Part shown: piece after piece, positions 44,914-63,595 of the stretch
Position numbering within the stretch: position 1 is the first letter of the stretch
Layout of the letters: every line of letters starts with the position of its first letter
Source of the DNA: Candidatus Oxydemutator sp.
GTDB taxonomy: Bacteria; Pseudomonadota; Gammaproteobacteria; Poriferisulfidales; Oxydemutatoraceae
Assembly (NCBI GenBank): GCA_965203445.1
Contig: OZ241883.1
Span: 1,920,001 to 1,984,000, forward strand
Length of the DNA: 64,000 nt
Reading direction: 5' to 3'
Position numbers and translations under genes: made by a program
The notes under the pieces: generated by a model
What the model was told of the DNA's origin: nothing
The model's database searches: none
The model's input: only the letters and a program-made list of their open reading frames with translations

Positions 44914-45093
44914 ATGATAGTGAAATGGGATGAAAACACCTGCATTCATGCGGGCAAATGTGTCCAGGGCTTGCCCACCGTATTCAAAGTGGTGGACGGA
45001 AAATTCGAGATTGATCAGTCGGGCGCCAGCGAGCAATCCATCCGCGACCAGGTCGCCGAGTGCCCGTCCGGTGCGTTGACAATCGAAGAGTAA
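44914..45093 (+). CDS. Small (4Fe-4S)-binding protein, YjdI-like divergent mono-cluster (59 aa, not in ORF track)
   Basis: Manual translation MIVKWDENTCIHAGKCVQGLPTVF...QVAECPSGALTIEE; AAGGAG RBS; CIHAGxC...CPSGAL signature. Confidence 0.85.
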   Translation: MIVKWDENTCIHAGKCVQGLPTVFKVVDGKFEIDQSGASEQSIRDQVAECPSGALTIEE

Positions 45094-45303: not shown

Positions 45304-46383
45304 ATGTTCGATTTTTTCAGCCGCAAGAAAGACCATGACGCGGTAATCAACTCGCGCACCCGCGTCACCGTGAAGGCCGGACAGAACCTTCTGGCGGCGG
45401 CGTTGGAGGCGGGCCTGGACTGGCCGCACGATTGCCGCGTCGGCAGTTGCGGCACGTGCCGTTGCAGGCTGAAGGCCGGGAAGATAAAAGCGCTTTCCGA
45501 CTTCACCTACGTTCTGACTGGCGAGCAGTTGCGCGACGGCGTGATTCTGGCCTGCCAGGCGGCGCTCAAGAGTGACGTCGAGGTCGAGGTCGCCCTGGGG
45601 GACGGCCGCGCCGGGATTGCGACGCTGGAGCGGCGGGCCGTGCTGGCCAGGAGCAGAGCCTTGACGCACGACATCCTCGAGTTGACGCTGGCCTGCGACG
45701 AACCGCTTCCCGACGGCATCATCGCCGGCCAATACGCGGAGATCGGCTACCACGGCCTGAGCAAGCCGCGCTCCTATTCCTTTGCAAAGTCCCCCGCGAA
45801 CGAGGAGCACGCGCAGCTGACGTTCTACGTCCGCCACGTGCCGGGCGGGGAATTCACCGACTGGCTTTTCGCCGAGGACCGCACCGGCGCGCGCCTGACG
45901 GTCACGTTGCCTTTCGGCAGCTTTCACCTGCACGACGCCGACGCGCCGATGATCTGCATCGCCGGCGGCAGCGGCATCAGCGCGATCAAGGCGATACTCG
46001 AGCACGCCTGCGACGCCGGCGTCGCCCGCGACGTTTATTTTCTGTTCGGCGCGCGCGCGCAGCGCGATCTGTACTGCCGTGCCGAGATCCGCGACATCAA
46101 GGAGCGCTGGAACAAAGCCCACGCCTTCGAGTTCGTCGAGGTGTTGTCCGACGAGCCCGCGGACAGCGACTGGAGCGGGCCGCGCGGCTTCGTCACGGAG
46201 TATCTGCGCGCCTCTTATATCGAGTCGAAGCGTCTCGACGTGACGCAGTGCCAGGGCTATTTGTGCGGGCCGCCGCCGATGATAGACGCGGGCATCGAAC
46301 TCCTCACGCAATCGGGCATGCCTGAGGAGCGGATTTTCTACGACAAATTTTTGGATGCGAGCACTCTTCCCGGCGGGCGCTGA
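45304..46383 (+). CDS. 2Fe-2S ferredoxin:NAD(P)H reductase, XylA/CymAb-type monooxygenase electron-transfer component
   Basis: PHDCRVGSCGTC...LACQ plant-type 2Fe-2S domain, RSYS FAD motif, AGGSGI NAD motif, YLCGPPPM. Confidence 0.88.
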   Translation: MFDFFSRKKDHDAVINSRTRVTVKAGQNLLAAALEAGLDWPHDCRVGSCGTCRCRLKAGKIKALSDFTYVLTGEQLRDGVILACQAALKSDVEVEVALGDGRAGIATLERRAVLARSRALTHDILELTLACDEPLPDGIIAGQYAEIGYHGLSKPRSYSFAKSPANEEHAQLTFYVRHVPGGEFTDWLFAEDRTGARLTVTLPFGSFHLHDADAPMICIAGGSGISAIKAILEHACDAGVARDVYFLFGARAQRDLYCRAEIRDIKERWNKAHAFEFVEVLSDEPADSDWSGPRGFVTEYLRASYIESKRLDVTQCQGYLCGPPPMIDAGIELLTQSGMPEERIFYDKFLDASTLPGGR

Positions 46384-53603: not shown

Positions 53604-53846
53604 TTATTGATCTTTTCCGGCGACGGCGCCTCTTTCCGGCGACGGTGCACCGCATATAATTTAAGTTATAGTACGACCGCAAGCCCATCCCCCGATTCGG
53701 AGCGCTCCCTCTATATACTATGCCCCGGATTGTTCTTGTCACACCCTTGTTACATATAGGGTAATTTGTGCTACTATACCCCCCATCAGATTACCACCCT
53801 CGTGGTGGTATCTGGTAATGAGTAATTACCTAGGAGGTACTCGTTT

Positions 53847-55037
53847 ATGAAAAAACTCTTAATTAATACGCGCTACTTCTTCGCGCCTCTGTTAATCCTG
53901 GTTGCCATGTTCGGCGTAATGCTGGGTGGCATATTCAACTGGGTCGGAGTTGCGTTGCTGGTAGCGGGTATATTCATCGATACCGCGATGAAGTTTCAGA
54001 GTCGGGGTGCCGGAGTTGATGGAGATGGGAATACCCTGGGTATTCCAGCGCTGCAAAACGGCGTCATGTACATCATGCTTCCGGTGTTCGTCCTGCTCCA
54101 GGTCGTCCTGGCTTGGCGCATTTTCCAGTACGTCACGGGAGTTCCGGTGGAAGTAACCGGAATGCTGTGGGGCGTATTGCCGATGACGAACGGCATCACG
54201 GGTCTGGATCTGATCGGCGCCACGTGCTCCATCGGTATCTTTGCCGGCATCGGCATTATCTACGGCCACGAACTGTCCCATACCAAGGGTTTCGGGTTCA
54301 TCATCTCGAGGCTGATGATGGGGCTGTCCGGTTCGGCCCATTTCTGCTACGCCCACGTGTATAACCACCACCTGGAACTGGCGTCGGAAGATGATCCGGC
54401 GACGGCGCCGCGTGGCCGGACGATATACGGGCACCTGCCGCTCAGCTATTTCGGGCAGTCCAAGTTTCTGCTTGAGATGGAACAGGCGCGGCTGAAGAAA
54501 ATGGGGGTTCCGTTCCTGTCGTGGCAAAACCGTTGGATTCGCGGCTTCATGATGAGCCTGCCTTCCCTGGCCCTGTTCTTCTGGGCAGGAGGCTGGGTCG
54601 GCGTAGGCTGTCTGGCCATCGTGTGGATCATTTCCAATTTTGAACTGGAAGCGTTGAACTTCCTGGAGCACTACGGCTTGATCCGCGAGAAGGGACTGCC
54701 GATAGACTATCGCCATTCGTGGGATAACTCCACGGCGTTCACGAGCTGGTTCTTCATCGAGATTGGTCGCCAGGCCGATCACCACGACCGCGGAGAAACT
54801 CACTTCTGGGAGCTGGACGAAGTGGATGCGCCCAACACTGGTTGGGGCTACTTCACTTTGTTTGCCATGGCATTGGTTCCACCGCTGTGGAAGATGTACA
54901 TGAAAAAGCGGCTGGCTGCCTGGGATGAGCATCATGCGAGCGATGGCGAGAAGGAAATCGCCCGTCGCATCAACGAAAAAACCGGTTTCGCCGGCACGGC
55001 GAAACCAGGGGATACGCTCTCCGCGACCGCGGCGTAA
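53847..55037 (+). CDS. Integral-membrane non-heme diiron monooxygenase (AlkB/XylM-like, fatty acid desaturase superfamily)
   Basis: TM helices; His boxes HELSH, HVYNHH, NFLEHYG, and IGRQADHH; DPATAPRG motif; AGGAGG RBS. Confidence 0.88.
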   Translation: MKKLLINTRYFFAPLLILVAMFGVMLGGIFNWVGVALLVAGIFIDTAMKFQSRGAGVDGDGNTLGIPALQNGVMYIMLPVFVLLQVVLAWRIFQYVTGVPVEVTGMLWGVLPMTNGITGLDLIGATCSIGIFAGIGIIYGHELSHTKGFGFIISRLMMGLSGSAHFCYAHVYNHHLELASEDDPATAPRGRTIYGHLPLSYFGQSKFLLEMEQARLKKMGVPFLSWQNRWIRGFMMSLPSLALFFWAGGWVGVGCLAIVWIISNFELEALNFLEHYGLIREKGLPIDYRHSWDNSTAFTSWFFIEIGRQADHHDRGETHFWELDEVDAPNTGWGYFTLFAMALVPPLWKMYMKKRLAAWDEHHASDGEKEIARRINEKTGFAGTAKPGDTLSATAA

Positions 55038-55064
55038 TTCACGTCCGACTGGATGTCATAATTT

Positions 55065-55104
55065 CCCGCCTGCCCCGGAACTCTCGCCGGGGCAGGTGGG
55101 CTTT
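55065..55104 (+). terminator. Strong stem-loop after the monooxygenase gene
   Basis: CCCGCCTGCCCCGG-loop-CCGGGGCAGGTGGG followed by a short T run; terminator or mRNA stabiliser. Confidence 0.6.
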
Positions 55105-55165
55105 ATGAGCGATTCGGTCAATACACTAAACAACATTTTCAGGAGTAACCTTTCAGGAGAAAATA

Positions 55166-55825
55166 ATGGCTGTTGGAGATAGCTTGCGTAACCGTGTCCA
55201 ACTGTGGGGCGCGCCCGGATGCGTGAATACGGCGAAATGCCTGTTCACGGCGGGAGAAAAAGGCATGGACGTGACGACGATAATGTTCGATCCCTCTTCC
55301 TCCGAAGTAAAGTCGAGATCGCCGCTTGGTCTCGGTCCTATACTTTGTCATAGGGATTTTGTGGTAGTCGGACACGTGGCCGTCATGTCGTACATGGACG
55401 ACAAGGGATTTGGACCGTCCCTGATGATTAGAAACGGAGTCGTCCGCGCGTTGCAGCATCAGTGGTCGCACTACACCACCGACGCCGTGCAGCCCGCGAT
55501 GGAAGCGGACGATGAAGGCGCGCTGGGAAGCGCTTTCGACCAGCTGAACGACCGGCTGAACGAGCGCGGCGGCAACATACGCGGCGATTTTATCTGCGGG
55601 GACTTTTCGCTCGCCGATATTCACTGGGCCGCGTGCGCGAACATGTTGATCGCCAAAGGCAAGGGTTCGATTGTGGACGGCCGCCCGGCCGTCGCCAAAT
55701 GGTGGGGCTTGGTCAAGGAACATCCGAGCACCAGCAAGGAGAACATCAGGGCATTCGAATGTATGCCGACCCAGGCGGATATTCAATCCAATACCCTGCG
55801 CGACATCAATATTCACAACAACTGA
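55166..55825 (+). CDS. Glutathione S-transferase-like protein
   Basis: SPLGLGP cis-Pro-like segment, C-terminal FICGDFSLADIHW N-capping motif, 219 aa; AGGAG RBS. Confidence 0.75.
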   Translation: MAVGDSLRNRVQLWGAPGCVNTAKCLFTAGEKGMDVTTIMFDPSSSEVKSRSPLGLGPILCHRDFVVVGHVAVMSYMDDKGFGPSLMIRNGVVRALQHQWSHYTTDAVQPAMEADDEGALGSAFDQLNDRLNERGGNIRGDFICGDFSLADIHWAACANMLIAKGKGSIVDGRPAVAKWWGLVKEHPSTSKENIRAFECMPTQADIQSNTLRDINIHNN

Positions 55826-55851
55826 AACCACCGGATAATAAGGAGACGCGA

Positions 55852-56046
55852 ATGTTCAAGATAGTGGTCGCAATGCTCGTATGGTCCGGAGCGCTGGGTT
55901 ATGGTCTGTGGATGCTGGGCGTCCAGAACCACATGCATGATCCGCTATGGGCGATAGGTACCGGACTGGCTTTGCTGATTGGGCTCATGGTCAACGTCGT
56001 GCTGTTTTCCAAACTGCACGGCAACAAACCATGGGAATGGTTCTAA
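55852..56046 (+). CDS. Small two-TM membrane protein (64 aa), unknown function
   Basis: AAGGAG RBS; MFKIVVAMLVWSGALGYGLWML...HMHDPLWAIGTGLALLIGLMVNVVLF; tight operon spacing. Confidence 0.7.
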   Translation: MFKIVVAMLVWSGALGYGLWMLGVQNHMHDPLWAIGTGLALLIGLMVNVVLFSKLHGNKPWEWF

Positions 56047-56077
56047 AATGATTTTTCAACAACTACGGAGAAGTATA

Positions 56078-57508
56078 ATGAAAAAATCACAAATGACGTC
56101 GTCAGCAGCAAAGGGTCTGGTTCTCACCGTCTCCTTTTTGCTGATGCCGCTGGCCGCGGTGGCGGGGCCGTATGGATACGACTTGCACAACGTGCTGTCA
56201 CCGAAGGCCGCCGGCATGGCGGGCACGACGATCGCGGGACCGGGAGCAGGCCCGGTCGAGGCGGTCTATGGAAACCCCGCCAACCTCGCCGATTTCTTCG
56301 TCTCGAGGACCGGACAGACTGCGGGAACGCAGTTCACGTTCGGGGCGACGTTGTACCATCCGGAGGCTATTGCGAAGCATGGGGATCGGAATGTAGCAGC
56401 CCCTGGAACTAATGCTGCTAATAACCCCTGTATCACGTGTTTGGCTGGAGGCGCAGCGTTTCGTGAAAGATCTCAGGCTGAATCTTATGCGGTGCCGCAG
56501 GTTGGCTTTACCCAGGATCTTTCCGGGCTCGGCATACCTGTTGTCTTAGGCGGCGGTTTGTCGGCGGTTTCCGGCATCGGTGTAGATTGGCGCAGCAATC
56601 CGAACGCATTGGGTGTCGGTGCCGAATTCATTGTACTGGGAATCAACCTGGGAGCGGGTTATGAAGTGTCCCCGGCTATGGATGTGGGTGTTGCGGCGAC
56701 TATCAGTTACGCGATGCTTGAAGCCGGTTTGGCCGGGACCTCTGGGCAAGCGCATGATTATGGGATTCGCGGCACTCTCGGGGCGGATTATCACCTGACC
56801 GACTCGACCGACGTCGGGTTTTACGTTCAGAGCGAATTGCGGCACAACTGGAATGACTTTGTTTTGCTGAGTAATGAACCGCTATTAAATGCTGGTGGTC
56901 AGCCGACAGGTTTCGGTCGTATTCAGGCTGCTCAATATTCTGATCTGGATATTGAGCAACCGGCTAACCTTGCCTTTGGCATTTCACACAAATTCACCGA
57001 TGACCTGCGTATTGCGGCTGATGTAATCTATAAAAAATGGAGCGAGGCCGCCTTCTGGGAAAGGATTTACCATGATCAGACCGCGTTCTCGATTGGTGGT
57101 GAGTATGACATGGGTCCTTGGACGTTTCGGGCCGGCTACGGTTATGCGAATGATCCGAACCGCGACACGCCGAAGGGTGGTGCATTAGAAGGGAATGATT
57201 TCATTTGTACTGGATCACCACCGGCCAATGGCGCATGCCTGCCGTTGGCTGGTCCGCTTGGTACTGCGGTGTGGAGCTGGGTTCAGGCGATGGAAGGTCC
57301 TGTCATTTATGAACATCGTGTCAGCGCCGGCTTTACGTACCATGGTTTCTTGGCGCCGTTCCTGAATCTGGATGTGCACGTCGCACATCAAATGCAGGAA
57401 GACAGAGACTTCAGTGTCCCCGATTTCGGTCCGCTTAATTTTACAGATCACACCGAACTCGACGTCCAGTCCTGGCACGGAGGCTTCGCGCTGACCTGGG
57501 CGTTTTAA
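56078..57508 (+). CDS. FadL/TodX/OmpP1-family outer-membrane channel for hydrophobic substrates
   Basis: Signal peptide, GMAG...NPA hatch motif, amphipathic beta strands, RAGYGY, C-terminal Phe. Confidence 0.85.
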   Translation: MKKSQMTSSAAKGLVLTVSFLLMPLAAVAGPYGYDLHNVLSPKAAGMAGTTIAGPGAGPVEAVYGNPANLADFFVSRTGQTAGTQFTFGATLYHPEAIAKHGDRNVAAPGTNAANNPCITCLAGGAAFRERSQAESYAVPQVGFTQDLSGLGIPVVLGGGLSAVSGIGVDWRSNPNALGVGAEFIVLGINLGAGYEVSPAMDVGVAATISYAMLEAGLAGTSGQAHDYGIRGTLGADYHLTDSTDVGFYVQSELRHNWNDFVLLSNEPLLNAGGQPTGFGRIQAAQYSDLDIEQPANLAFGISHKFTDDLRIAADVIYKKWSEAAFWERIYHDQTAFSIGGEYDMGPWTFRAGYGYANDPNRDTPKGGALEGNDFICTGSPPANGACLPLAGPLGTAVWSWVQAMEGPVIYEHRVSAGFTYHGFLAPFLNLDVHVAHQMQEDRDFSVPDFGPLNFTDHTELDVQSWHGGFALTWAF

Positions 57509-57531
57509 CTACTACTACGGAGGGCAGCACT

Positions 57532-57804
57532 ATGCCTAAATTCATCATAGAGAGGGAAATCCCCAATGCGGGTTCCCTGTCCCAATCGGAGCTGCAAGGC
57601 GTCGCTCAGAAGTCGTGCAGCATCCTGAAGGACATGGGGCCGCAGATCCAATGGGTCGAAAGCCAAGTCACGGACGACAAGGTGTACTGCACGTACATCG
57701 CTCCCGACGAGGAGATGATCAGAAAACATGCAGAAGCCGGCGGCTTCCCAGCAAACAAAATATCAATGGTAAAAAGAACGATTGACCCAACAACGTCGGA
57801 ATAA
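57532..57804 (+). CDS. DUF4242 family protein
   Basis: MPKFIIEREIP.AG.LS, QWVES.VTDDKVYC.Y.APDEE.IR.HA..GGFPAN. Confidence 0.88.
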   Translation: MPKFIIEREIPNAGSLSQSELQGVAQKSCSILKDMGPQIQWVESQVTDDKVYCTYIAPDEEMIRKHAEAGGFPANKISMVKRTIDPTTSE

Positions 57805-57852
57805 CATACGAGAGATCATCAACATGGTAATACTCATAAGGTAGCGTTCATT

Positions 57853-57890
57853 ATCGGGTTGTCTCTTTTCCAAGAGACAACCCGATTTTT
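57853..57890 (+). terminator. Intrinsic terminator closing the monooxygenase cluster
   Basis: ATCGGGTTGTCTCTT-TTCC-AAGAGACAACCCGAT followed by a T run. Confidence 0.8.
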
Positions 57891-57931: not shown

Positions 57932-58349
57932 ATGCCAGAACATAAAACCACGAAAGTCCTATTCCTCTTTTTCATAATACTGTCCTTATCCGCCTGTAGC
58001 ATTGGCATTGGTAGCGGGCGGCTCTATACCTCACCAGGAGTATCTTTAGAAGGTGTTAAATCAATTTTTGGTAAACACTATGATGATATAGATGAGATGG
58101 CTGAGCAGGAGCAGATAGAAGATATTGATGCCCTTATCGCAGACATATTTGATGGAGACCCTAACTCTTTTCAAGAAGCGACAGCGGTTCGCTCTGTCTG
58201 TAAATCGGGAGATGCAAAGAAGCAGGCTTTGTCTCGGAGCTCAACAGACGATGAAGATGCAGAGAAGCAGGCTTTGTCTCGAAGCTCAACAGAGACGAGG
58301 ACATGCTATAGGAATGAATTGCAAAATCTTATCCTGGGTAGATCAGAAA
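57932..58349 (+). pseudogene. Lipoprotein gene, 5' half (interrupted by IS1595 element)
   Basis: Lipobox LSAC (Cys22); frame continues into 60974-61494 when the IS and one TSD are removed. Confidence 0.85.
58211..58293 (+). repeat. 45-bp-period in-frame tandem duplication
   Basis: DAKKQALSRSSTDDE / DAEKQALSRSSTE; units start at 58211 and 58256. Confidence 0.85.
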
Positions 58350-58376
58350 GGGAATTATATACTTAAATCTACAAAA

Positions 58377-58564: not shown

Positions 58565-59875
58565 CTATGCCGTCTTTCTGCCAAAGGTTATCTTGCGTTT
58601 CAGCAATTTCTCGCGGGCGGCGATTTTGGCCATCAGGTAATCCATAGGCCTATCACCCTTTATACGATTGCAGTTGCCACATAGCAGTTGGTAATTGCCG
58701 TAGGTATCCTGCCCGCCCTTGTTCTTGGGCACTATATGGTCTATTTCCAGATTCTCGTAGTTGTCCATGCCACAGGCATTGCATATCTTGCCGTATTCCT
58801 TTCCCAATCTCTTCTTTACTTGCTTCTTGTTCTTGGCATCAACTATATCCGTTATCTCTATATCCGTTCTGATCGGCACATCGGTTCTATGGACAAAATC
58901 TTTGAACAATCCGGCTTCATCGGACAATCTATCCACTACCAACTCGGCAGACTTCTTTTCAATATCTATTCCTATCCATCTGCGTTGTAATTGTTGCGCC
59001 GCAACCATTGTTGTTGCACATCCACAAAAAGGGTCCAAAACCACATTGCCTTTGTTGCTGCTTGCCTTAATGATCCGTTCAAGCAGGGCCAACGGTTTCT
59101 GCGTGGGGTAACCCAAACGCTCTTTTGATGTCCTACCAACCGCGTCCATGTTCCAATAGTCCCTACAACCCGTCATTGTGTAATATCCCCGTTCGTCCTT
59201 ATACAATTTTATGTTGGTCTTTGAAAAAAGGATATTCTGATAGGTTCCATGCTCATCACTAAGCGTTTTGTTCTTCTTGGAATGTCTTAATTGCCCTGTC
59301 AGGTATGACCTATCTTGCGGTATGTTGAAATTGTATTTCTTGCTTTTGCTGTAAAACAAAATTACATCGTGCTTCCGGCCGAAGAATCTTTTACTTGCTC
59401 CACCAGTCCGATAACACCAAAGAATTTCATTCAGAAAATTATTCTTGCCGAATACTCTATCGCAGATAATTTTCAAGTAGTGACTTGCTGTTTGATCACA
59501 ATGTAAGTAAAGACTGCCTGTAGGTTTCAACACCCTATGCATCTCCAGTATTCTTTGGGTCATGTAAGTAAGATACGCCATCATCGCCTTGCTATGCAGT
59601 ATTTCTACTGCTTCTATATACTGAACAAGATACGGGTAGTCATTCACCATTCTTTCCAGGTACGCCTCGTCAACGTCCTTCCAACTCCACATGTCCTTGA
59701 AAGAAGCACCGGCCGCCTTGCTGCCTATCGGTGCCGAATAAAACCGCTTGCTATTGAACGGGGGGTCAAGGTAAATCAAATCAACCGATTCACTGTTCAT
59801 CCCGTTCAGCACGTACAGGCAATCCCCAGTGAACAAGATATTCCTTTGTAAATCAAGGGGTTGCCCCCCCCGCAC
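58565..59875 (-). CDS. N6A/N4C DNA methyltransferase (beta-class motif order) fused to C-terminal HNH endonuclease
   Basis: YLDPPF (motif IV) precedes YPTQKP...VLDPFCGCAT (motif I); C-terminal CNAC...IDHIVP..GG....NYQLLC..CN..K. Confidence 0.9.
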   Translation of the reverse strand: MRGGQPLDLQRNILFTGDCLYVLNGMNSESVDLIYLDPPFNSKRFYSAPIGSKAAGASFKDMWSWKDVDEAYLERMVNDYPYLVQYIEAVEILHSKAMMAYLTYMTQRILEMHRVLKPTGSLYLHCDQTASHYLKIICDRVFGKNNFLNEILWCYRTGGASKRFFGRKHDVILFYSKSKKYNFNIPQDRSYLTGQLRHSKKNKTLSDEHGTYQNILFSKTNIKLYKDERGYYTMTGCRDYWNMDAVGRTSKERLGYPTQKPLALLERIIKASSNKGNVVLDPFCGCATTMVAAQQLQRRWIGIDIEKKSAELVVDRLSDEAGLFKDFVHRTDVPIRTDIEITDIVDAKNKKQVKKRLGKEYGKICNACGMDNYENLEIDHIVPKNKGGQDTYGNYQLLCGNCNRIKGDRPMDYLMAKIAAREKLLKRKITFGRKTA

Positions 59876-59906
59876 TATATGTAGTAGGTGCCACGGGTCT
59901 GGCCGG

Positions 59907-60830
59907 TTATGTGGTTAGTTCTTTGTACGAGATGCGCTTGCCTCCCATGCCCTGCACAAGCGATTCCATCCGATCAATAGTATCCACTTCGCAGTTGCCC
60001 TCGTTCAGGCGGAACGAGAACTCATCCACATAGCGATGCAGATGTTTCTTGCTGACATGGTGGAAGGTGCCGTGCACGCCTCTTTTCAGCAACGCCCACA
60101 CCGACTCGATACTGTTCGTATGAACCATGCCATCTACATACCTATTAGCGGAATGGTTGATGGCTTCATGTGTGTATCCTTGTAGTCCCGTATAGGCGCC
60201 ATGCTCATCAGTGAACACTCTTGAACCTTTCTCAATATTATCGTAGATAACATTCTGTAAAGTATGTTTATCGGTGTTGCCCACCGGCATCGCCTTCACA
60301 CGGCCTTTGCGCTCACGCATACCAAGTACAGGTGTTTTGCCGATAGTTCCCCGTCCGGCCTTCAGTTTCTTGTTCTCATGCTTGTTCCGTTCCATGCCCC
60401 CTATGTAGGCCTCATCCACTTCCACAATATGCGACAACTTGAACTCCCCCTGCTTGCAGGCCTCGCGGATGCGCTGCAACATATACCATGAAGACTTTTG
60501 GGTGATACCCAACTCTTTTGACAACTGCAAAGATGATATGCCCTTGCGTGCCGTCAACACGGCATAGATGGCTATGGCCCATTTGCGAATCCCAATTTTG
60601 GATGCGTGCATAACGGAACCCGTCTTAACAGTGAATGCCTTGCGACAATCCTTATGCCAGTATGTGAACTTTTTGCCCTTGTACGGGTTGATATTATCCA
60701 TGCCCCCGCAATGCGGGCACACCGGCTTGCCCTCCCATCTTGAACGTTCAAGCCAGGCAACAGCCTTGCGCTCGGTGCCGAACATGGAAGACAACTCTAT
60801 TATGCTAATCGTATTTGCTATTCTTTTCAT
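59907..60830 (-). CDS. IS1595-family (ISXO2-like DDE) transposase
   Basis: Zn ribbon CPHC...HKDC, KGISSLQL HTH, VEVDEAYIGG, TDE, HTNSIES, HHVSKKHL.RY..EF.FR.N. Confidence 0.94.
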   Translation of the reverse strand: MKRIANTISIIELSSMFGTERKAVAWLERSRWEGKPVCPHCGGMDNINPYKGKKFTYWHKDCRKAFTVKTGSVMHASKIGIRKWAIAIYAVLTARKGISSLQLSKELGITQKSSWYMLQRIREACKQGEFKLSHIVEVDEAYIGGMERNKHENKKLKAGRGTIGKTPVLGMRERKGRVKAMPVGNTDKHTLQNVIYDNIEKGSRVFTDEHGAYTGLQGYTHEAINHSANRYVDGMVHTNSIESVWALLKRGVHGTFHHVSKKHLHRYVDEFSFRLNEGNCEVDTIDRMESLVQGMGGKRISYKELTT

Positions 60831-60867
60831 GGCTTTTCTCCTCTCAATCAATCTCTGTTTGTAGATT

Positions 60868-60897
60868 ATTATACTGATATTATAATGTGTGTGTCAA
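60868..60897 (-). promoter_or_regulatory. Consensus sigma70 promoter of the IS1595 transposase/passenger operon
   Basis: Minus strand TTGACA-18 nt-TATAAT. Confidence 0.75.
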
Positions 60898-60973
60898 CCC
60901 TGCCCCTTTCTTATTGATATACAAAGGAATTATGGAACCTTTGTAGATTTAAGTATATAATTCCCATCAGAAA

Positions 60974-61494
60974 CCCGGTGTGGCAGATTTTTGCAGCATC
61001 TTAGGGGACAAAGTTCAGATCTTCATTATACTTTGGGAATCGCGTCCGTCGTAGCAGGTGCGTTCGCGACAGTTATTGAGCATGCCAAAACCGCCCAGAA
61101 GTTTTCCGGAGTATCTGCTGCTGCAACTGGAATCAGGGCGGAATATGACCAGAGTTATTTCAACCAATTGCTGATAAATACGATCGAAGGAGGTATCAGT
61201 AAAAAACGCAGGGAAATCAGGGATGAAATTGAGAAGAAGGCAAAGGGAGATATTAATACGTATGGCGTTAATCAGGCAGTTAAAGACGCGAGGCGGTATC
61301 ATGCCAGTTGTAATATTATTGCTGGGTTGAAAAAGGCAAGTGCAATTGATCATTCTATTGGCCTGAAGAAGTTTCAGGAGACGACCGAGGAGCTTAGGAA
61401 AGAAAGATTACGTATGCTAAAGGATCTAGAAGACCAAGAAAAAAAACAAGAAGAAGAAATAGAGGAGATCAAAAAACAAATAAACGGAGGGTAA
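60974..61494 (+). pseudogene. Lipoprotein gene, 3' half
   Basis: In-frame continuation ...LILGRSE|TRCGRFLQHL...; reconstructed protein 312 aa. Confidence 0.85.
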
Positions 61495-61577
61495 TAAACA
61501 ATCCTAGCGACGCGAATGATAATGAGGATGTAGCATAGTTTCTCGTTGGCTTGTTACAGCGGGTGTTCTGCCGTTTG

Positions 61578-62703
61578 TGACCTACCTCCCCTCAAGGAAT
61601 ACGAGGCGGGCGCCCGCATGGCGGATTTGTCTCGCAAATAGGGGGTCAGCGAGCAGAGTTTCTACCGCTGGAAGTCGAAGTATGGGGGAATGGATGTAAG
61701 CGAAGCGAGGCGCTTGAAGCAGTTGGAGGTGGAGAACGCCAAGTGGAAGCACCTGCTGGCGGAGGCGATATTAGACAAGAAGGCGTTGCAGGAGTTGGTA
61801 TCAAAAAAGTGGTGACGCCTGGGGCGCGCCGCCAGAACGTGCGGCACTTGGTGCGCCGCGACGTGGCGAGCGTGCGTCGGGCAGCACGTCCCTTGATGGG
61901 TTTGGTGGGATTGAGTCGTTCGGTGGCGCAGTATCGGCGCCACCGGCGAGGTCACGAGGCATTGCGAAGGCGTCTTTATGGAGTTGGCGCGGAAGTATCC
62001 GCGCTACGGGTATCTGACGCTGCACGGGCTGCTGCGTGCCGAAGGGCTGGTGGTGAACCGCAAGCGCACCTATCGCCTGTATTGCGAGCTAGGCTTGCAG
62101 GTGCGCCGGCAGCGGCGCAAGAAGCTGTCGCGCCCGCGCGTGGCGATACCGGCGCCCGGCGCCGCGAACCAGCACTGGTCTATGGACTTCGTATCGGATC
62201 AGTTGGCCTGCGGGCGCCGCTTTCGCATTCGGGGCGTCATAGACGACTACTCGCGCGAGTGCGTCGGTCAGATAGTGGGCACTTCGATAGGTAGCGAGCG
62301 CGTGGTTCGTTTCCCGGATGCTCTTGGCCAAAAGCGCGCGCTGCCCAAGACGCTGGTATGCGACAACGGGAGCAAGTTCGCCAGCAAAGCAATGTGTCTA
62401 TGGTCGAGAAGCAGCGGTGTGGAGTTGCACTTCATCCAACCCGGCAAGCCGGTGCACAATGTCTATGTGGGGCCTATGTGGAGAGTTTCAACGGGTTTGT
62501 GCGACGCCTGCCTGAACCAGCCCTGGTTCGCGGATTTGGGGGACGCCAAGCAGCTCATTGCCGACTGGCGCCATCACTACAACCACGTCAGGCCGCATAG
62601 TTCCTTGGGCTATGTAGCGCCAGCGGCATTCCTGAAGAAGGCCGCAGCCTGATACAATGGAATTTCTTTCAATGACTGCGACCCTAATTTAGGGGGAAGG
62701 TCA
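61578..62703 (+). mobile_element. Degenerate IS3-family (IS407-group-like) element
   Basis: TGACCT...AGGTCA ends; orfA lacks N-terminus and has TAG at 61639 (FYRWKSKYGG motif remains); A6G frameshift site at 61803-61809; orfB with WSMDF, DDYSRE, DNG, YN.VRPHSSLGY, frameshifted. Confidence 0.87.
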
Positions 62704-62761
62704 ATTTAGGGGGAAGGTCATTGAAAGAAAAGTTTTACGCAAAGGCCACAGATGAAAATAT

Positions 62762-63595
62762 GAACCTATCTCAAAATCAAATATCTGCTGATTATCGTGT
62801 ATGATCTATTGCATGGTACGATTGAGCGACGAGCAATGGGAACGCATACACAAGCACTTCCCAGAAGAGAACATCCCACCGGGTCGGGCCGGTCGCAAAC
62901 CAGTGCCGACAAGGAAGGTTCTCGAAGGCGTCCTGTGGATCCTCAACACGGGTGCGCAATGGAAGATGCTGCCGCAATGTTATCCGAATTACAAAACAGT
63001 TCACCGTCGTTTTCAACGGTGGTGTATGGACAACACCTTGCGCGATCTGTTGGTGGACTTGGCTAACGATTTACGCAAGGAAGGGATCGTGGACGAGAGG
63101 GAGTGTTATATAGATGGGATGTTTGCCGCGGCCAAAGGGGGTGGCGCCGAGGTGGGTAGGACGAAGCGCGGAAAAGGCGTCAGAATCATGGCCATAGTGG
63201 ATAAGCATGGTCTGCCGTTGTCGGTCAGTACGCACGCGGCGAACCATCACGAAGTGACCTTGGTGCAGTTGAGTTTTGACTTTTACATGATAGAGGCGAA
63301 GCCGAAGAACCTGATAGGGGATCGCGCCTATGATAGCGATGGTTTGGATGAGGAATTGCGCGCTTCGGGGATAGAGATGATAGCCCCGCACAAACGCAAT
63401 CGTAAGAAACGCAAGACCCAGGATGGTCGCAGACTGCGCCGTTACGAAAGACGCTGGATAGTGGAGAGAACTTTTGCATGGCTACAGTGGCAACGACGAG
63501 TGTTAACACGGTGGGAGTATTACGCGCATAACTTTTTTGGTTTTGTGCAGCTGGCTGCCATGATGATATTGATTAGGCAATTTTGAGATAGGTTC
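62762..63595 (+). mobile_element. IS5-family insertion sequence, apparently intact
   Basis: Perfect 16-bp TIR GAACCTATCTCAAAAT, flanked on both sides by AT; single transposase ORF. Confidence 0.9.
62813..63586 (+). CDS. IS5-family transposase
   Basis: LSDEQW, GVLWILNTGAQW, YIDG, GDRAYDSD, Y..RWIVERTFAWL. Confidence 0.92.
   Translation: MVRLSDEQWERIHKHFPEENIPPGRAGRKPVPTRKVLEGVLWILNTGAQWKMLPQCYPNYKTVHRRFQRWCMDNTLRDLLVDLANDLRKEGIVDERECYIDGMFAAAKGGGAEVGRTKRGKGVRIMAIVDKHGLPLSVSTHAANHHEVTLVQLSFDFYMIEAKPKNLIGDRAYDSDGLDEELRASGIEMIAPHKRNRKKRKTQDGRRLRRYERRWIVERTFAWLQWQRRVLTRWEYYAHNFFGFVQLAAMMILIRQF

Follow-up and report, generated by a model that had tools for sequence, protein, structure and literature searches.

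A membrane diiron monooxygenase operon of Candidatus Oxydemutator as a candidate dimethyl sulfide monooxygenase system

What is the substrate of the five-gene oxidative cassette of Candidatus Oxydemutator? The cassette occupies positions 53847 to 57890 of the 64,000-nucleotide stretch analysed here (contig OZ241883.1 of assembly GCA_965203445.1, positions 1,920,001 to 1,984,000; hereafter the window), and the original prediction read it as an uptake, oxygenation and glutathione route for a hydrophobic alkene, terpene, halogenated or organosulfur compound. We propose, as the likely reading of sequence and comparative data, that the cassette is a membrane diiron monooxygenase system that starts the catabolism of dimethyl sulfide (DMS), converting DMS, O2 and NADH to methanethiol and formaldehyde. 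We hold a broader proposal a little less firmly, while still favouring it: that the system is a second, independently evolved DMS monooxygenase with an eight-His/one-Gln metal centre, that it is the missing first enzyme of DMS degradation in Methylophaga, and that sponge-associated and streamlined marine Gammaproteobacteria have it as a core gene. The evidence comes from the monooxygenase itself, from its company of methanethiol and formaldehyde genes, and from published expression data on its probable Methylophaga counterparts.

The cassette consists of five genes read from the same strand, each start codon being preceded by a GGAG-type ribosome-binding site, with a strong hairpin behind the first gene and a terminator behind the last, all as first described. 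Its features are as follows.

53847..55037, + strand: gene 1, membrane diiron monooxygenase (AlkB fold, Gln-variant clade), 396 aa, Pfam FA_desaturase 4.5e-26
55065..55100, + strand: GC-rich hairpin with a 14-bp stem and no U-run, -33.3 kcal/mol, z -6.0, 0/200 shuffles
55166..55825, + strand: gene 2, GST (glutathione S-transferase)-fold protein with Cys19, 219 aa, weak Pfam GST_C 0.0033
55852..56046, + strand: gene 3, conserved two-helix (2-TM) membrane protein, 64 aa, two hydrophobic segments, no Pfam family
56078..57508, + strand: gene 4, FadL/TodX-family outer-membrane channel, 476 aa, Pfam Toluene_X 1.5e-12
57532..57804, + strand: gene 5, DUF4242/SCO4226-like protein, 90 aa, PF14026 3e-26
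57853..57886, + strand: terminator-like intrinsic hairpin with a 15-bp stem and T tail, z -7.8

What kind of enzyme is gene 1? It is single-copy in the host genome (G000; 2.38 Mb, single contig), and its AlphaFold2 model (mean predicted local distance difference test score, pLDDT, 93.9) finds two AlkB structures as its sole structural matches in Foldseek (8F6T, E 3.5e-16; 8SBB, E 2.1e-13; template-modelling scores 0.76-0.77), SCD1 reaching only E 0.32. The AlkB fold, the histidine boxes and the HYG motif place it in the AlkB/XylM branch of the membrane FADS-like diiron superfamily, and the module is indeed built on a membrane diiron enzyme, as had been predicted. Identity to XylM, AlkB and their relatives is 26-33%. 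Among 1.84 billion representatives there is one full-length close representative, together with fragments of the same clade at 57-80% identity, and the remaining long matches fall to 28-38%. The nearest named relatives are metagenome-assembled genomes of Ca. Porisulfidus and Ca. Oxydemutatoraceae, and the named orthologs are EEF81234.1 of Methylophaga thiooxydans (70%) and SFJ80434.1 of M. sulfidovorans (68%). In a FastTree phylogeny of 90 rows, for which 23 close hits and 57 of 150 representatives were chosen and which has CymAa and NtnM outside it, gene 1 falls in a clade of 26 rows that is separate from the AlkB and XylM rows, its stem measuring 1.1 with SH (Shimodaira-Hasegawa)-like support of 100. 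An ordinary alkane or xylene hydroxylase, named beforehand as part of one case fatal to the prediction, is not what the phylogeny returns. The clade also carries a signature: at the first His position of the third box, all close homologs (222/222) have Gln and all outgroup rows (64/64) have His, so that gene 1 does not have the HxxHH last box of the nine-His AlkB site. In AlkB nine His residues bind the irons and all are reported to be indispensable (PMC10110569); the Gln of the gene 1 clade is therefore a real departure.

Copies and fragments of the monooxygenase occur in relatives. Two genomes, G260 and G533, hold three and four copies of the clade, down to 50% identity, and these paralogs may differ in substrate. 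A 36-residue fragment that is 92% identical to the monooxygenase lies apart from the intact copy in another genome (G036:C1:657616-657723). In five of 80 loci the neighbourhood of the monooxygenase includes a protein of 830 aa (L018 12221-14719) that combines an AlkB-like desaturase domain with a weak GlnE-like match.

To which metabolism does the enzyme belong? We sampled the class evenly, using genomes at least 90% complete (400 scored for the monooxygenase, with G353 left out, and 401 for mtoX, the SBP56-family methanethiol oxidase gene). The monooxygenase is present in 17/400 and mtoX in 32/401, and mtoX is found in 16 of the 17 monooxygenase carriers (9 of 10 families) compared with 16 of the 383 non-carriers. 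The Fisher test gives 6e-19, an inflated value that overstates the overlap because related genomes are not independent. The dependence runs one way, in that monooxygenase carriers have mtoX and not the converse, and this fits an enzyme that makes methanethiol. The same holds on smaller scales. In the genus Methylophaga (the genus of G001; 37 genomes, completeness not given) the monooxygenase and mtoX are each found in 3/37, in the same three genomes and 8-22 kb apart. In the order of the host, represented by 53 genomes, 51 contain the monooxygenase, 51 mtoX and 50 the GST-like gene, and the reductase discussed below has one match each in 51; in complete genomes of the order each of the four is present in 41/41. 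Unless stated otherwise, the locus counts in this text refer to the best 80 of 260 GTDB loci around gene 1 homologs, with G and L numbers denoting relatives' genomes and loci. We picked 46 genomes from these 80 loci; mtoX is matched in 40 of the genomes, in three only partially.

Physical linkage tells the same story in three families, where one strand runs from the monooxygenase into mtoX. The order is monooxygenase-glbN-reductase-mtoX-sco/mauG, then frmA-fghA, in G147; monooxygenase-ferredoxin-GST-reductase-2TM-FadL-mtoX-sco/mauG-tlpA, flanked by formate dehydrogenase and fhc genes, in G295; and monooxygenase-2TM-glbN-mtoX in G443. The host itself encodes an MtoX that scores above the NCBIfam equivalog cut-off (725.9 vs 650), together with sco/mauG, fae, a pyrroloquinoline quinone (PQQ) alcohol dehydrogenase, dsrA and gshB; neither RuBisCO nor frmA nor the NtaA/DmoA model TIGR03860 has a match in its genome. 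The relatives G007 (1.2 Mb) and G048 have the monooxygenase, mtoX and fae, and neither shows a PQQ methanol dehydrogenase match above cut-off. Co-occurrence with methanethiol oxidase and with formaldehyde oxidation, which is what is expected of a DMS monooxygenase, is therefore what these genomes present.

The Methylophaga relatives probably connect the cassette to growth on DMS. EEF81234.1 has a 100% identical counterpart in one Methylophaga genome, G093, encoded within a minus-strand operon of the order monooxygenase-glbN-ferredoxin-GST-reductase-2TM-FadL-glbN2-DUF4242. The operon lies 7.7 kb from an mtoX cluster and contains no alcohol or aldehyde dehydrogenase of an upper pathway. Gene 5 of the window is 72% identical to the DUF4242 protein of G093, whose sequence equals the printed MDMS009_82 letter for letter; judged by its sequence, gene 5 is the ortholog of MDMS009_82, a protein that rises 9.33-fold on DMS in M. 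thiooxydans (PMC6548844). The same study reports that MDMS009_226 is induced ~136-fold on DMS. From its name, strand and neighbours we infer that MDMS009_226 is very probably the gene of EEF81234.1. Published DMS induction covers the genes that are most likely the orthologs of the monooxygenase, the globin and the reductase (PMC6548844). According to the authors of that work, the reaction that begins DMS breakdown was unidentified, no candidate had been found and a monooxygenase may exist; dmoA is reported absent from six Methylophaga genomes, and the proteomics drew on soluble fractions only (PMC6548844). The first-step gene of Methylophaga is still described as unidentified in 2022 (PMC9563715). 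Our literature search, whose coverage left out most subscription journals and bioRxiv supplements, found no paper that assigns a monooxygenase of this family to DMS oxidation.

Two details of the published list deserve a remark. We considered the induced porin MDMS009_906 as the operon FadL and dropped it; it agrees with a paralog of 35% identity close to the second mtoX, encoded on the + strand beside a dihydrolipoamide dehydrogenase gene and a metallo-beta-lactamase gene. Table S6 of PMC6548844 seems to have interchanged the strands of the mtoX genes MDMS009_211 and _768, if the genes clustered with each are taken as a guide.

How would electrons reach the diiron site? Alcohol and aldehyde dehydrogenase and rubredoxin families have no Pfam match in the five genes or in the scanned flanking open reading frames (ORFs), which bears out the earlier observation that the genes typical of alkane and xylene operons are missing. 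Two candidates lie upstream in the window:

44914..45093, + strand: ferredoxin-like gene, 59 aa, Pfam Fer4_19 6e-15, ribosome-binding site visible
45304..46383, + strand: XylA-type NADH reductase with 2Fe-2S, FAD and NAD domains (Pfam Fer2/FAD_binding_6/NAD_binding_1)

The reductase is 42-45% identical to XylA. Its ortholog sits inside the operon, between the GST-like and 2-TM genes, in 17/80 loci, and it is for this reason the likely partner of the monooxygenase, as the original prediction had suspected; it would serve as the electron donor. A XylA-type reductase is likewise the partner of the XylM, CymAa and NtnM monooxygenases. The 59-aa ferredoxin is 52% identical to the copy in the Methylophaga-type operon and occurs in 15/80 loci. 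The GST-like and 2-TM genes are each found in 23/80 loci, FadL in 11/80 and DUF4242 in 12/80 (one of these weak, at 26%), and the exact five-gene order of the window is repeated in six loci, so the check that had been set for the cluster, co-conservation of its genes, came out in its favour. Loci such as L010 and L050 have the order pnp-msrB-monooxygenase-(glbN)-ferredoxin-GST-reductase-2TM, followed by dksA-xseA-guaB, and the window has pnp-msrB-ferredoxin(44914)-reductase(45304)-dksA-xseA-guaB. Comparison of the two orders indicates that the old site has kept exactly the two electron-transfer genes that are absent from the cassette 7.5 kb away, an arrangement that reciprocal loss between the old site and the cassette would explain.

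Other genes recur beside the monooxygenase in relatives. fabA and a MerR-type regulator with a weak B12-binding match are divergent from stand-alone monooxygenase copies at L013 6245-7783 and in 39 other loci; the host keeps a MerR-type regulator at C1:1120419-1121363, with no fabA above cut-off there. An uncharacterised molybdopterin oxidoreductase paired with a FAD/NAD/4Fe-4S reductase adjoins the monooxygenase in 9/80 loci (L013 12061-15500), and the same pair is 75% conserved elsewhere in the host (G000:C1:2183410-2186872); it is possible that the pair performs a further step of methyl-sulfur metabolism. The Methylophaga-type loci (L090 39-2068; L089 3125-9849) have NorQ/NorD-like AAA+/VWA genes upstream and, downstream, two more GST-fold genes, an acyl-CoA-dehydrogenase-like gene, a MetX-like hydrolase gene with a 58% homolog in the host, and a two-component system.

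We propose the following route, in which the substrate, the product and the role of every subunit are what we infer from this context. DMS would enter through the FadL outer-membrane channel, and the 45304 reductase would deliver electrons from NADH to the diiron site, with the 59-aa ferredoxin as a possible intermediate. The enzyme would hydroxylate one S-methyl group of DMS to the hemithioacetal CH3-S-CH2OH, which would yield methanethiol for MtoX and formaldehyde for Fae and the tetrahydromethanopterin (H4MPT) pathway; sulfide would then be consumed by reverse Dsr. More speculatively, the Cys-bearing GST-fold protein might handle the product, be it thiol or hemithioacetal, without binding glutathione in the canonical way, the 2-TM peptide might be an accessory membrane subunit, and the globin of relatives might supply O2.

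Several points weigh against this proposal. Related genomes are not independent in the co-occurrence counts, and mtoX is not matched in six of the 46 genomes picked from the 80 loci, five of which are 0.6-1.0 Mb in size, nor in the one exception of the class sample, G440 (97% complete, 280 contigs), which has the operon. The monooxygenase lies near fabA in 40/80 loci, 36 of them with a MerR-type regulator, and the GST-like gene is in none of the 40. The tie between MDMS009_226 and EEF81234.1 is indirect, G093 holds a second desaturase-family gene, and a keyword search of the supplements of PMC6548844 returned no accession numbers that join the two. The authors of that study read the induced desaturase as membrane repair, cite Boden et al. 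2010 for a failure to detect DMS monooxygenase activity and for the suggestion of a methyltransferase, and report a 5.3-fold rise of MtdA, an enzyme of the tetrahydrofolate (H4F) pathway (PMC6548844). Their Table S6, a selection of genes, has no entry for the GST-like, 2-TM or operon FadL genes, and MDMS009_906, the porin that is induced, is probably a paralog of the operon FadL. Finally, given the indispensability of the nine His residues in AlkB (PMC10110569), the Gln variant may work differently.

Which other reading of the locus survives best? To an alternative in which the enzyme is a methyl-sulfur oxygenase of another kind, forming dimethyl sulfoxide (DMSO) from DMS or acting on dimethyl disulfide, methylthio acids or larger methyl thioethers as precursors of methanethiol, we assign a small but appreciable chance. 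Co-occurrence and linkage tie the enzyme to methanethiol and not to DMS specifically, AlkB-type enzymes sulfoxidise thioethers, and larger hydrophobic molecules are the usual cargo of FadL channels. Against it, the likely ortholog is induced in cells that grow on DMS as sole carbon source (PMC6548844), and a DMSO product would make mtoX needless, yet nearly every carrier has it and formaldehyde genes flank the operon.

We regard as unlikely a second alternative, in which gene 1 desaturates or hydroxylates lipids and serves membrane upkeep against the H2O2 or sulfide stress that methanethiol oxidation brings. This is what the authors of PMC6548844 suggested, and the FA_desaturase match of gene 1 and the frequent proximity of fabA agree with it, as does G147, in which the search found no fabA and, apart from the monooxygenase, no desaturase-family match. 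A Gln that opens the third His box is typical of front-end desaturases, a trait for which our literature search found no paper. The fold argues otherwise, as it matches AlkB only (E 1e-13 to 1e-16) and not SCD1. So does the partnership with a XylA-type reductase and an outer-membrane channel. A separate desaturase-family gene is present in both the host and G093, the latter also having fabA; 34 of the 37 Methylophaga-genus genomes have no match to the monooxygenase, and the class sample contains 16 mtoX carriers that do without it.

The third alternative turns on gene 2. Its predicted structure is a GST fold (pLDDT 90.9) with Phi-class enzymes as best matches, at no more than 22% identity to solved GSTs, and it has the thioredoxin-like and all-helical fold, the cis-Pro and the N-cap Asp of cytosolic GSTs. 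Cys19, which is Cys in 24/25 family members, aligns with the Phi-class catalytic Ser. In canonical GSTs a Glu/Gln-Ser pair binds the gamma-glutamyl moiety of glutathione; at this position the gene 2 family has Gly in 25/25, followed by a variable residue, and it has invariant motifs of its own, DDKGFG and TSK. In the ESM Atlas gene 2 falls into its own unnamed cluster and into generic GST clusters. No GST-like homolog occurs in the 12-18 kb around the monooxygenase in G147, G374 and G443, whose whole genomes were not searched. The loss of the Glu-Ser pair and the absence of the gene from some loci make canonical glutathione conjugation unlikely as the second step of the pathway. A route of the isoprene type, in which an alkene, terpene or halogenated compound is taken up, epoxidised and then conjugated to glutathione, is thus highly improbable: the GST fold, the gshB of the host and the retention of the GST-like gene across most of the order speak for it, and the Gly-X replacement, the loci that lack the gene, the lack of IsoH/IsoG-type neighbours in the ORF listings, and a one-carbon sulfur context in a host with no frmA match speak against it. 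Of the substrates first listed, the organosulfur class is thereby retained, on the DMS/methanethiol one-carbon context and the expression data, and the alkene and terpene epoxide route falls on the GST evidence.

How does the proposed DMS monooxygenase relate to known systems? In architecture the operon resembles XylM/XylA (pWW0, and the pNL1 homolog), which also combines a membrane diiron hydroxylase, a single-chain 2Fe-2S/FAD/NADH reductase and a FadL-type channel; the attack on a methyl group that we propose would be common to both, and a Glu four residues before the third box is shared. In contrast, the window enzyme is 27-28% identical to these two, sits on its own long stem with the His-to-Gln change in box 3, and is linked to mtoX, whereas pWW0 encodes benzyl alcohol and aldehyde dehydrogenases that the cassette lacks. 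We rejected assignment to the XylM clade on these grounds: 27-29% identity, XylM rows that group by themselves, and no adjacent upper-pathway dehydrogenases. With AlkB of Fontimonas thermophila (8F6T/8SBB) gene 1 has the fold in common; eight of the nine His ligands align, and so do the HYG-motif Glu and, in the vestibule, the Leu equivalent to L274. It differs in its 22-32% identity, in Gln at the H321 equivalent, in Phe and Ile at the L315 and L318 equivalents, and in having no rubredoxin system. The separate clade, the His-to-Gln change and a XylA-type reductase in place of a rubredoxin chain led us to reject AlkB alkane 1-monooxygenase as well. DmoAB of Hyphomicrobium sulfonivorans converts DMS to methanethiol and formaldehyde by means of a soluble, flavin-dependent DmoA. 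The net reaction is the one proposed here, and the fold is unrelated, the host having no NtaA/DmoA family match. The isoprene system (IsoA-F with IsoI) likewise encodes an oxygenase with a GST-fold protein, but its diiron enzyme is soluble, and the window GST-fold protein has lost Glu-Ser and is absent from some loci. Gene 2 itself resembles Cys-type GSTs and SspA-like proteins in fold, cis-Pro, N-capping Asp and the near-invariant Cys, and differs from them in its low identity to solved GSTs, the lost Glu-Ser pair and its private motifs. The operon thus resembles XylM/XylA in architecture and DmoAB in its proposed reaction, and belongs to neither, nor to AlkB. NCBIfam has no family for genes 1, 2, 3 or 5.

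DMS, a climate-active gas, is described as the main route by which biogenic sulfur passes from the sea into the air, a flux that its microbial degradation affects (PMC6548844). As the DMS-initiating enzyme of Methylophaga was unidentified in 2019 and 2022 (PMC6548844, PMC9563715), surveys cannot count that route; the operon points to a set of genes that can be tested in a strain already in culture. If our proposal is correct, AlkB-family chemistry takes in a one-carbon sulfur substrate, at a metal site that is altered, and a GST-fold subunit has been repurposed away from glutathione. Marine-metagenome genes labelled 'alkane 1-monooxygenase' would have been misread as hydrocarbon degradation. 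The order that has the gene set in all its complete genomes would live partly on DMS, and sponge-associated and streamlined marine lineages would be an unrecognised DMS sink with a marker gene.

Finally, the composition of the cassette differs from that of host core genes. The G+C content of its third codon positions (GC3) is 0.57-0.72 vs 0.83-0.88 in host core genes, and it lies 3' of tadA-mltF and upstream of a low-GC stretch with a methylase-HNH gene and insertion sequence (IS) elements. The hairpin at 55065-55100 is likely an mRNA-stabilising or step-down element; a strong hairpin follows the monooxygenase stop codon in nine of ten related loci that were folded and is less clear in L002. 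A further hairpin, at 53785-53816, immediately precedes the ribosome-binding site of the monooxygenase (z -2.9 for 53780-53846) and is a possible regulatory element. Downstream, a low-GC ORF of 144 aa (57932-58366), whose product has a hydrophobic segment at its N terminus and contains an internal repeat, has no Pfam match and no match in the 80 loci. Beyond it, the low-GC island at 58565-63586 encodes an N6/N4 DNA methylase-HNH fusion, an IS1595 transposase and more transposase-like ORFs, and two more GC dips (0.54-0.60 vs 0.66 background) lie at ~14-18 kb and 33-36 kb of the window.

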